From: Escherichia coli
GTDB taxonomy: Bacteria; Pseudomonadota; Gammaproteobacteria; Enterobacterales; Enterobacteriaceae
DNA: 4,361 nucleotides
Reading direction: 5' to 3' (one strand)
NCBI RefSeq assembly: GCF_003334335.1
Contig: NZ_QOWQ01000079.1
The notes under the pieces: generated by a model
Seen by the model: only the letters and a program-made list of their open reading frames with translations
The model's database searches: none
Told to the model about the DNA's origin: nothing
Made by a program: the position numbers and the translations under genes
Shown: positions 2,207 to 4,189 of the stretch, piece by piece
Numbering within the stretch: position 1 is the stretch's first letter
Layout of the letters: every line of letters starts with the position of its first letter

Positions 2207-4189
2207 ATGACATTTAAACACTACGATGTGGTCAGGGCGGCGTCGCCGTCAGACCTTGCGGAGCGACTGACTCAAAAACTGAAGGAGGGGTGGCAGCCAT
2301 TTGGCAGTCCGGTGGCCATCACGCCCTATACCCTGATGCAGGCCATTGCGGCGGAAGGTGATGTCACCACACCGGTGGTGGTGCAACCGTCGGGTGATGG
2401 TGGCGCTGTTATCAGCACCACCAGCGAACCGGAATATTACTTTGTCATTGCGCTGGCCGGGCAGTCCAACTCGATGTCTTTTGGCGAGGGGCTGCCGCTG
2501 CCGGATACGTATGATCGTCCTGACCCGCGTATTAAGCAACTGGCGCGTCGCAGCACGGTGACACCGGGTGGTGTCGCCTGTAAATATAACGACATCATTC
2601 CGGCGGACCATTGTCTGCATGATGTACAGGACATGAGCCGTCTTAACCATCCGAAAGCGGACTTGTCAAAGGGGCAGTACGGTTGTGTGGGGCATGCTCT
2701 GCATGTTGCCAAAAAGCTGCTGCCGTTTATGCCTGCGAATGCGGGTATCCTTCTTGTTCCATGTGGCCGTGGCGATTCGGGATTTACTGCGGGGGCCGAG
2801 GGGGCGTTTAACGCAGCGTCGGGAGCGACCGCAGGCTCGTCCCTGTGGGGGGCGGATAAACCGCTGTATTATGACCTGGTCAGCAGAACGCGTGCAGCCC
2901 TGAAGAAAAATCCGAAAAACGTGCTGTTGTCGGTGATCTGGATGCAGGGGGAAAAAGATGTCAGTTCGGGGAGACATGCAGAGCACAATGCACTTTTTCT
3001 TGCCATGGTAAATCAGTTCCGTACGGAACTGGCAGATGTGGCAGAGCAGTGTACTGGCGGGACAACGGCCAGCGTCCCGTGGATTTGCGGTGATACCACG
3101 TACTACTGGAAGGAAAGGTATGCAGCGCCGTATGAGGCGGTTTACGGTGGGTATAAAGGCAAAGCTGCGCAGAATATTCACTTTGTGCCGTTGATGACGG
3201 ATGAGCATGGTGCGAATGTGCCGACAAACGAGCCGTCAGAAGATCCGGACATTATCACGGCGGGATACTATGGTGCCGCGTCACGCAGTAATGGTAACTG
3301 GACGACAGCCGATCGTAAAACGCACTTCAGCTCCTGGGCGCGAAGAGGCATTGTTTCAGATCGGCTGGCAGGAGAGATACTGGTGCGAGCCGGGCGTTTG
3401 CTGCCGTTCCTGAGCGGGCAGTCTGCACCGCTGGCGACCACGCCAGCCTCCACGGGGGATGCACAGTCTGGCTCTGCGGGTCCGACGCAACAGCAGGGTG
3501 CAGGTACTTCTGCAGGCGGTCATACTGAAGCCGTAACAAGAATGGTGGCCGGATATGATGCGAACAGTGGCAGTGGTGTATGGACAGAGCAGCAGTGGAA
3601 TGCGTCCGGTGGTAAAGGCACTGTGACGGATGACAGTGGCAGGAAGGCGCTGCGACTGGAAAAACAGCCGGGTAAACTGACCTCCTGGAAGATGTTCCGT
3701 ACTGTTGCGGTGGAGGAGGCAAAAAATCTTCTCAGTAAGGGAGGTGAAATTGCCGTGCGGTTTAAGATCCCGGAGGGTGTCGAACTGGTTAACGGTCAGT
3801 TTGTCTTTGGTCTGTACTGGCCGGTGTCGCAGTGGGCGTCAGGCGCGACAGCAAACAGCATGCTGGCGTCCTTCTTCCTTCAGACGGATGCATCAAATCT
3901 GAATCTGATGTACCACAAGGGGGAGTCGAATGCGCAACTGGGCACATTTGGGGCATTTGACCATAACTGGCATACAGTTGTTTTCCGCTTTGCGGGAAAT
4001 AACAGCGAAAAAGTGGTGCCGGTGATTGATGATGCAGAGCAGTCTGCGTTTGACCTGGTGATGTGGACAAATGATGGCTTTACAGCAGATACGCTGACGC
4101 TGACAGATATCACGGGGGCAAAAGCGACGTATCCGGTACTGCTTGATACGGTCACAGTCAAAGTTAACGAAAGCCGGGCATCATCATAA
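2207..4189 (+). CDS. nanS-p: Prophage-encoded sialate (9-O-acetyl-N-acetylneuraminate) O-acetylesterase, NanS-p-like: N-terminal DUF1737-type domain, SASA/SGNH-hydrolase esterase core, low-complexity linker, C-terminal putative carbohydrate-binding domain
   Basis: 660-codon ORF with a strong SD. The SGNH block I motif 'GQSN' lies in 'FVIALAGQSNSMSFGEG' with the putative nucleophile Ser at codon 87 (nt 2465-2467). The N-terminus 'MTFKHYDVVRA...' is the DUF1737 type fused to SASA esterases in EHEC prophage NanS-p proteins; length and architecture match that family. A Gly/Ser/Thr/Ala/Gln-rich linker (~nt 3419-3540) precedes a ~200-aa C-terminal domain. Assignment is from recalled family features, not a database search. 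Confidence 0.85.
   Translation: MTFKHYDVVRAASPSDLAERLTQKLKEGWQPFGSPVAITPYTLMQAIAAEGDVTTPVVVQPSGDGGAVISTTSEPEYYFVIALAGQSNSMSFGEGLPLPDTYDRPDPRIKQLARRSTVTPGGVACKYNDIIPADHCLHDVQDMSRLNHPKADLSKGQYGCVGHALHVAKKLLPFMPANAGILLVPCGRGDSGFTAGAEGAFNAASGATAGSSLWGADKPLYYDLVSRTRAALKKNPKNVLLSVIWMQGEKDVSSGRHAEHNALFLAMVNQFRTELADVAEQCTGGTTASVPWICGDTTYYWKERYAAPYEAVYGGYKGKAAQNIHFVPLMTDEHGANVPTNEPSEDPDIITAGYYGAASRSNGNWTTADRKTHFSSWARRGIVSDRLAGEILVRAGRLLPFLSGQSAPLATTPASTGDAQSGSAGPTQQQGAGTSAGGHTEAVTRMVAGYDANSGSGVWTEQQWNASGGKGTVTDDSGRKALRLEKQPGKLTSWKMFRTVAVEEAKNLLSKGGEIAVRFKIPEGVELVNGQFVFGLYWPVSQWASGATANSMLASFFLQTDASNLNLMYHKGESNAQLGTFGAFDHNWHTVVFRFAGNNSEKVVPVIDDAEQSAFDLVMWTNDGFTADTLTLTDITGAKATYPVLLDTVTVKVNESRASS

Follow-up and report, generated by a model that had tools for sequence, protein, structure and literature searches.

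The window analysed here is a DNA stretch of 4361 bp that makes up an entire contig of an Escherichia coli draft assembly; so short a contig is to be expected, since multi-copy prophage sequences break assemblies. Its central element is an open reading frame (ORF) at positions 2207-4189 of the plus strand, an intact gene for a NanS-p-type sialate O-acetylesterase and thus a known member of a known family, which very probably belongs to the late genes of a lambdoid E. coli prophage devoid of Shiga toxin (Stx) genes. The gene itself is routine, its near-identical copies in RefSeq numbering more than 1000. New here is the observation that one short cassette within its N-terminal domain co-varies with the type of phage head encoded in the same element, which provides a modest lead on capsid targeting. 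The parts of the gene are as follows (aa, amino acids; nt, nucleotides; AF2, AlphaFold2; pLDDT, predicted local distance difference test).

2197..2202, plus strand: Shine-Dalgarno GGGAGG, 4 nt before the nanS-p ATG, read from the sequence
2207..4189, plus strand: nanS-p ORF, ATG to TAA (stop codon included), 660 aa; identical to RefSeq WP_114494386.1; full-length match to phrog_143 (E 4e-302; PHROGs)
2207..2359, plus strand: N-terminal DUF1737 domain, aa 1-51 (Pfam PF08410, aa 3-50, E 2.3e-15)
2300..2359, plus strand: variant-A cassette, aa 32-51, FGSPVAITPYTLMQAIAAEG; the portion of DUF1737 that alleles exchange and that follows the type of head
2360..2431, plus strand: linker 1, aa 52-75, predicted disordered (pLDDT <50); ~18% identical to that of phi24B; TTP at aa 54-56
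2432..3406, plus strand: NanS-like SGNH (SASA) esterase domain, aa 76-400 (NanS 3PT5 alignment, Foldseek, comparison with phi24B)
2462..2467, plus strand: Gln86-Ser87 of GQSN block I (oxyanion-hole Gln, nucleophile Ser), aligned to NanS Gln18 and Ser19
2939..2953, plus strand: WMQGE motif, aa 245-249; W245, M246, G248 and E249 invariant in an 18-allele alignment
3323..3325, plus strand: His373, catalytic base in the THFSSWARRG motif, aligned to NanS His301, invariant in 18 alleles
3407..3547, plus strand: linker 2, aa 401-447, G/S/T/A/Q-rich, predicted disordered (pLDDT 23-41); TTP at aa 411-413
3548..4186, plus strand: C-terminal DUF6645 domain, aa 448-660, with an all-beta jelly-roll fold like that of lectins (Pfam, PDB 6YP6, AF2/Foldseek)

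An Intact Member of the NanS-p Family

An earlier note on this DNA had recognised a NanS-p-type esterase of three parts with a DUF1737-like N-terminal segment, and this reading is borne out by Pfam matches to DUF1737, SASA and DUF6645 and by alignments with PDB entries 3PT5 (E. coli NanS) and 6YP6 (the C-terminal domain of NanS-p). Chance does not explain these matches, given E-values of 6e-114 and 7e-47, respectively. RefSeq names the protein "SASA family carbohydrate esterase", and its 90%-identity cluster counts 1498 members. We scored 1558 homologues; among the 120 listed, all that carry a name come from E. coli, and the combination of DUF1737, SASA and DUF6645 is present save in a few truncated entries. 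DNA related to the window was found in 3350 of 5426 complete E. coli genomes, at a median of 2 and a maximum of 15 places per genome. The family has been under study since 2014 (PMC8065619), and its allele diversity has been catalogued in all three domains (PMC10462455). The nearest complete genome, E. coli JNEC-KY176 (97.8% identical), has an HK97-like head, while the nearest phage, PhiR12_1 (protein 96.5% identical), shares the same late region and has a lambda-type head, Nu1-A-W-B-C-D-E.

One might suspect a decaying, non-functional prophage remnant, considering that the window is a short contig, that an E. coli genome may hold up to 15 nanS-p-related places and that some copies are frameshifted (phi330) or interrupted by insertion sequences (PMC10462455). 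We regard this as very improbable, however, since the frame is a full 660 aa, equal in length to its relatives, and preceded by a strong Shine-Dalgarno sequence and an in-frame stop further 5' (2174-2176), while all family-invariant residues, including Q86, S87 and H373, are kept in a protein whose cluster is as populous as stated above.

The Esterase Domain

E. coli NanS (YjhS, 3PT5) aligns with aa 74-392 of the window protein, whereas the Pfam SASA match is confined to aa 158-276 (E 2.4e-8). In the full-length AF2 model, built from an 18-sequence alignment (mean pLDDT 67.9, both linkers below 50), reliability is limited to the C-terminal domain and to parts of the esterase and does not extend to the N-terminus; this model matches 3PT5 in Foldseek with a template modelling (TM) score of 0.82 and 53% identity in the structural alignment. 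Thus, Pfam, 3PT5 and Foldseek all place residues ~75-400 in the SGNH/SASA family, as the earlier note had expected; an NCBIfam search of the esterase returned no match. The block I GQSN was listed at aa 84-87, and the serine that the note had put at 2465-2467 is exactly Ser87. Q86, S87, N88 and H373 are invariant across 18 diverse alleles of 47-91% identity, and Asp369 lies at -4 relative to His373. The marks of the SGNH superfamily are present, namely conserved GQSN, H373 and WMQGE, the last of which we take to be the SASA-family block-III-like motif; the Asp is optional and is absent in NanS. In NanS itself, catalysis relies on Ser19 and His301, with Gln18 in the oxyanion hole and no catalytic Asp (PMC9063846).

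By analogy, the Ser87-His373 dyad, with an oxyanion hole made by Gln86 and the backbone, would hydrolyse O-acetyl esters of sialic acids, such as 5-N-acetyl-9-O-acetylneuraminic acid (Neu5,9Ac2) and O-acetylated mucin glycans, without the classical Asp. Every NanS-p allele assayed from EDL933 and O104:H4 was an active Neu5,9Ac2 esterase that de-O-acetylated mucin glycans and supported growth (PMC8065619). The same Neu5,9Ac2 and mucin O-acetylesterase activity we infer for the window allele from these homologues, because it shares no more than about 55% of its residues overall with the 933W/phi24B enzyme that was assayed biochemically; between the esterase domains of the window protein and of gp84, the phi24B homologue, identity rises to 71%. 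An annotation note of PhiR12_1, "CP-933V", is the sole hint that the window allele may equal one of the assayed EDL933 alleles.

The Linkers and the Lectin-like C-Terminal Domain

The low-complexity linker of the earlier note is there, 73% of linker 2 (aa 401-447) being G, S, T, A or Q; the string quoted in that note spans aa 411-443 (nt 3437-3535), which is narrower than the ~3419-3540 assigned to it. Across alleles, linker 2 measures 44-66 aa between fixed anchors and is always of low complexity and hypervariable in sequence. Compared with phi24B gp84, that of the window is ~14% identical and ~19 aa longer. Slippage was considered as the source of the low complexity and rejected, since linker 2 contains no tandem DNA repeat. 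The pattern [ST][ST]P occurs in the window protein only twice, as TTP, once in each linker (2366-2374 and 3437-3445). For phi24B gp84, SSP motifs in both linkers have been proposed as autoproteolysis sites (bioRxiv 10.64898/2026.04.10.717836). The window protein has no SSP motif, with TTP standing at the equivalent linker positions; the parallel between TTP and SSP as possible shared cleavage sites is a weak one, because other alleles have no [ST][ST]P in linker 2.

The ~210-aa C-terminal domain had been described in the earlier note as being of unknown fold, which is out of date. The structure of the homologous phi24B domain is available (PDB 6YP6) and shows a lectin-like jelly roll (Franke et al. 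2020, as cited in PMC10462455 and PMC8065619). This structure aligns with aa 448-654 of the window protein (47% identity), Pfam DUF6645 (PF20350) matches aa 509-617 (E 9e-32), and the modelled domain (AF2 pLDDT 80-90) superposes on 6YP6 with a TM score of 0.87 and a root-mean-square deviation of 2.4 A (Foldseek). Its next structural neighbours are lectin-type jelly rolls as well, first among them 2W68 (TM 0.70), the sialic-acid-binding lectin domain of the V. cholerae sialidase. The jelly roll, hung on a disordered and hypervariable linker, may target the enzyme to glycans.

The N-Terminal Domain and Its Counterpart on the phi24B Capsid

The N-terminal domain was modelled separately with AF2 from a 25-sequence alignment, giving a predicted beta(3-11)-alpha(14-26)-beta(30-39)-beta(42-51) topology with pLDDT 74-88 over aa 1-50. 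This agrees with the one helix and three antiparallel strands described for the capsid-bound DUF1737 domain of phi24B gp84, a virion protein according to cryo-electron microscopy (cryo-EM) as well as proteomic evidence (bioRxiv 10.64898/2026.04.10.717836, a 2026 preprint). According to the same preprint, a gp84 DUF1737 hexamer plugs the central hexon of each facet on the T=9 capsid through a loop whose Tyr42 "tooth" inserts between helices of the capsid protein, and the remainder of gp84 is later cleaved off in both linkers. Searched with Foldseek against the PDB, our N-terminal model gave no match (best E 0.34), the cryo-EM model of phi24B not being in the PDB copy searched.

Compared with the capsid-binding domain of gp84, the window domain is 62% identical overall, the value falling from 90% in aa 1-31 to 25% in aa 32-55. 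The anchor loop and both flanking strands are thus replaced in the window, and the loop is 3 residues shorter, while a tyrosine is retained, Tyr41 (nt 2327-2329), at the predicted tip of the beta2-beta3 hairpin.

The N-terminus also bears on how the protein leaves the cell. Among 10-residue windows that begin within the first 30 residues, the Kyte-Doolittle mean reaches 0.47 at most; there is therefore no hydrophobic N-terminal stretch and no Sec-type signal peptide, just as the earlier note had observed. Hence, NanS-p would leave the cell only at phage lysis, in agreement with the literature. The view drawn in that note, of a host-benefiting moron released on lysis, fits the missing signal peptide and is nevertheless incomplete: in phi24B, DUF1737 docks the protein onto capsid hexons, and NanS-p would thus not be merely a soluble moron.

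The Cassette Tracks the Type of Phage Head

Herein, 22 phage and prophage loci were typed by local tblastn with four families of major capsid proteins; those pairs of capsid proteins that were compared directly had no significant similarity. The second half of DUF1737 occurs in three variants, which partition by the type of head genes without exception:

Variant A (window), FGSPVAITPYTLMQAIAAEG: HK97-like capsid protein at 7 loci and lambda-E-like capsid protein at 2 loci
Variant B (phi24B), YGSALISTAGYGAEFIQPVVSEG: phi24B-type capsid protein at 10 loci
Variant C, YGGPFSSYTDDGAALIQAIVAEG: lambda-like head with a ClpP-protease/capsid fusion at 3 loci

The phi24B-type capsid gene (T=9, P22-portal/Phage_capsid_3) accompanied variant B only. 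Unlike the cassette, the esterase and C-terminal domains shuffle freely between loci. All three variants, A, B and C, are found combined with the C-terminal type of phi24B (at least 97% identical) and likewise with that of the window, and neither type tracks the head. Nucleotide identity profiles show that the cassette edges are sharp. From nt 361 to the gene end, an allele from an Stx1a siphovirus (L006) agrees with phi24B at 99-100%, and in nt 91-330 at only 30-73%; likewise, the window and a variant-C allele (L027) share 90-100% over gene nt 151-1170 and 47-67% in nt 61-150, and identity drops again past the N-terminal domain, in linker 2 (around nt 1171-1350). The head genes lie 8-10 kb from nanS-p, and across shuffled esterase, C-terminal and lysis modules the cassette alone stays linked to them. 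The one stretch of nanS-p tied to the head genes is, in phi24B, the stretch in contact with the capsid. We found no mention of this link in four papers naming DUF1737.

Two further alleles deserve a comment. In the long-tailed Stx2a phage vB_EcoS_phi330 (PV189401; L004, 20001-21936), a variant-A nanS-p is split, apparently by a frameshift, into coding sequences of 126 aa and 503 aa, so that the DUF1737 part would be made without the lectin domain. A fourth nanS-p allele, 44% identical and with the N-terminal loop ESPNIVEPSKGGPNAYNQAIV, was found at 20001-21911 of the 109-kb circular Escherichia phage CMS-2020a (CP054387; L009). None of the four capsid-protein types occurs within 20 kb of nanS-p there, and CMS-2020a may be a phage-plasmid or belong to a different head family.

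Is NanS-p Displayed on Phage Heads?

Such evidence induces us to propose, with a probability of roughly 0.35, that many lambdoid coliphages display NanS-p on their heads as a modular lectin-plus-esterase, in which a cassette of ~20-30 codons (beta2-loop-beta3) sets the lattice to which the protein docks. Variant A would then serve the HK97-like and lambda-like heads of siphoviruses, variant B the T=9 podovirus head of phi24B and variant C the lambda-like heads with the ClpP fusion, while selection would keep the cassette matched to the head genes, leaving the rest of the gene and the intervening lysis cassette to recombine freely. In the window protein, the beta-alpha-beta-beta domain might accordingly anchor NanS-p on the outer face of the head, as in phi24B gp84, with the variant-A cassette as the version for HK97-like or lambda-like heads, a step for which we see not quite even odds.

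Several points weigh against this proposal. The identical variant-A domain accompanies an HK97-like head in KY176 and a lambda gpE-like head in PhiR12_1, whose capsid proteins have no detectable similarity. T=7 heads lack facet-centre hexons of the kind used in phi24B. Binding in phi24B, for its part, is limited to the flat facet-centre hexons of the T=9 shell (bioRxiv 10.64898/2026.04.10.717836). The sample of 22 loci is small and phylogenetically structured, and three of its B loci come from one protein look-up. The 4.4-kb contig of the window carries no head genes, so that head types had to be taken from its nearest relatives. On the side of the enzyme, the reading as a glycan-targeted esterase is limited by the distance of the window allele from the tested 933W/phi24B protein (55% identity overall, 71% in the esterase and 47% in the C-terminal domain), and for no NanS-p has glycan binding through the latter domain gone beyond a proposal (PMC8065619). 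As regards virions of a variant-A phage, NanS is not reported in those parts of the mass-spectrometry text and supplement of PMC12502783 that were accessible; the paper names a virion proteomics dataset, PRIDE PXD061229, which covers CsCl-purified phi330, a long-tailed phage with variant A.

The wider DUF1737 family adds to these points. On a 196-kb non-phage contig, ABC-transporter and peptidase genes surround a gene for an 80-aa protein with this single domain (L016, 7001-7243). Distant DUF1737 proteins from outside E. coli often have two tandem copies of the domain, and a 296-aa member (L023, 814-1704) shows a faint tachylectin match. Given such tandem-domain, non-phage and tachylectin-like members, the Pfam family is not obviously restricted to capsid decoration. 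When stand-alone DUF1737 genes were checked for neighbouring head genes, most contigs were shorter than 3 kb and hence uninformative, and the one long contig was non-phage; these neighbourhoods neither support nor kill a general capsid role. Taking together the two unrelated capsids, the T=7 geometry, the small sample, the non-phage DUF1737 genes and the absence of head genes from the contig, we consider the display of the window allele itself on heads through DUF1737 to be tentative, its chances lying somewhat short of one half.

An explanation of comparable standing, again a little under even odds in our estimate, holds that NanS-p is a purely soluble metabolic moron, free at lysis and of benefit to sibling lysogens only, with DUF1737 in this phage type serving some role other than capsid binding, such as oligomerisation or folding. 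Published work does treat NanS-p as a soluble enzyme that confers a growth advantage on Neu5,9Ac2 (PMC8065619), and the pairing of one identical variant-A domain with two unrelated capsid proteins, like the stand-alone DUF1737 genes in non-phage contexts, is easily understood in these terms. The position of nanS-p is also in keeping with it, since 8-10 kb separate the gene, in the Q-S region, from those for the head, whereas decoration genes usually lie beside the capsid gene. What speaks for docking instead is the direct capsid binding seen in phi24B by cryo-EM and proteomics, together with the fact that the only head-tracking part of the gene is the capsid-contacting part in that phage, although both flanks recombine; it is hard to see why a domain with no role at the head should remain tied to such genes.

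Virion association in phi24B also brings to mind a modifier of receptors, whose real substrate would be an O-acetylated bacterial polysaccharide, with O-antigen, capsule and O-acetylated polysialic acid as candidates, and whose deacetylating activity would aid adsorption or prevent superinfection. SGNH esterases of other phages deacetylate O-antigens. A receptor-modifying role of NanS-p has been raised as a possibility in a review (PMC8065619). To our mind it is unlikely, given that the core is so close to the sialate esterase NanS (E 6e-114; 53% identity) and that Neu5,9Ac2 and mucin glycans are substrates of the alleles tested. The phi24B protein is, furthermore, on the head and not on the tail, where receptor-modifying enzymes act, and, outside its own family, the C-terminal domain is structurally closest to a lectin domain that binds sialic acid.

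Whether free or displayed on heads, the esterase would de-O-acetylate sialic acids of mucus, with a nutritional benefit to surviving lysogens and possibly some help to virions in mucus.

Relation to Known Systems

The NanS-p proteins of 933W (z1466/L0105) and phi24B (vb_24B_21, i.e., gp84) resemble that of the window in the order of their three domains (DUF1737, NanS-like SGNH esterase, DUF6645), in their catalytic residues, in the lack of a signal peptide and in their slot upstream of DUF1378, DUF826 and holin S. They differ in that the window has no stx operon upstream and a linker 2 unrelated in sequence; besides, phi24B has the T=9 head of a podovirus, whereas the nearest relatives of the window belong to phages with HK97-like or lambda-like heads. 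Chromosomal NanS of E. coli shares the SGNH type-II core, the GQSN block, the Ser/His dyad and the oxyanion Gln; unlike the window protein, it is a bare catalytic domain of about 326 aa without DUF1737, linkers or a lectin-like C-terminal domain, and it is not prophage-borne.

Further afield, the haemagglutinin-esterases of influenza C/D viruses (HEF) and of coronaviruses and toroviruses (HE) likewise unite a lectin-type domain with an SGNH sialate-O-acetylesterase for 9-O-acetyl sialic acids, on the virion surface (PMC3266934; PMC9063846). Beyond the SGNH superfamily, their sequences are unrelated to the window protein, and their lectin domain is inserted in the esterase rather than tethered by a linker; also, HE is an envelope glycoprotein for attachment to host cells, while surface display of the E. 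coli window allele is putative. T4 Hoc offers another possible analogy, drawn in the phi24B preprint, being non-essential, displayed at hexon centres and potentially able to retain virions in mucus. It differs, however, as a monomer that acts through Ig-like domains and has no enzyme activity, whereas gp84 is a hexamer through DUF1737 and is later cleaved off.

The NanS-p family helps pathogenic and commensal E. coli to feed on O-acetylated sialic acids of mucus. If head display through matched cassettes proved true, virion display would not be peculiar to phi24B but common to lambdoid phages in general, non-Stx prophages such as that of the window included, and a "host-benefit" gene would be recast as a structural accessory of phages acting in gut mucus. 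NanS-p would then be a phage counterpart of the viral haemagglutinin-esterases, and variants A, B and C would provide a simple sequence marker that predicts head type from a short contig.

Genomic Context

The remaining features of the window are as follows (sRNA, small RNA).

7-945, plus strand: N6/N4 adenine DNA methyltransferase, 5'-truncated by the contig start; the full gene is 1059 nt in KY176
986-1061, plus strand: tRNA-CAU (Met according to ARAGORN, Ile according to RefSeq)
1069-1145, plus strand: tRNA Arg-UCG; the tRNA trio spans 986-1235
1159-1235, plus strand: tRNA Arg-UCU, third of the trio
1369-1577, plus strand: STnc100-family sRNA copy 1 (RF02076), 122 bits (gathering score 47), ending in a terminator-like hairpin at 1540-1567
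1773-1985, plus strand: STnc100-family sRNA copy 2 (RF02076), 147 bits (gathering score 47), ending in a terminator-like hairpin at 1955-1974
4329-4361, plus strand: start of a DUF1378-family gene that runs off the contig end; in relatives, the first of the DUF1378-DUF826-holin S block

These neighbours place nanS-p in a lambdoid late region, the full context being visible in PhiR12_1 and in KY176, where the order is Q ... methylase - tRNAs - nanS-p - DUF1378 - DUF826 - holin - lysozyme - HNH - terminase - capsid. The tRNA trio is typical of late regions of Stx phages. There are no stx genes upstream of nanS-p in the window, and a trio without stx after it therefore points to the late region of a non-Stx lambdoid prophage. 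The 970-nt stretch between the tRNAs and nanS-p, which in Stx phages is the slot holding stxAB, has no ORF of note and holds instead both STnc100 matches with their terminator-like hairpins, besides another such hairpin at 1249-1266. These two copies are diverged duplicates, and the segment 1731-2206, including copy 2, is kept upstream of nanS-p in nearly all lambdoid phages sampled. STnc100/PasD sRNAs have been linked with esterase genes in a 2026 preprint.

No plus-strand promoter was predicted just upstream of nanS-p, which, together with the published induction of nanS-p along with late genes (PMC8065619, PMC10462455), fits a Q-dependent late gene. Most likely, then, nanS-p would be transcribed within the Q-antiterminated late operon, where it follows the methylase/tRNA/sRNA block and precedes the lysis genes (DUF1378-DUF826-holin). 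Two terminator-like hairpins converge some 200 nt upstream of the gene, one at 1955-1974 on the plus strand and one at 2013-1992 on the minus strand; the latter comprises 7/8 G-C pairs and a T-run, in a place with no annotated minus-strand gene.

Finally, we would like to comment on the variation within the gene itself. Of 96 nucleotide differences from JNEC-KY176, 72 are concentrated in window positions 2501-3200, within the esterase domain, and several positions there agree with the phi24B-type sequence rather than with KY176. Such a distribution looks like a recombination patch, left by intragenic recombination between nanS-p copies.

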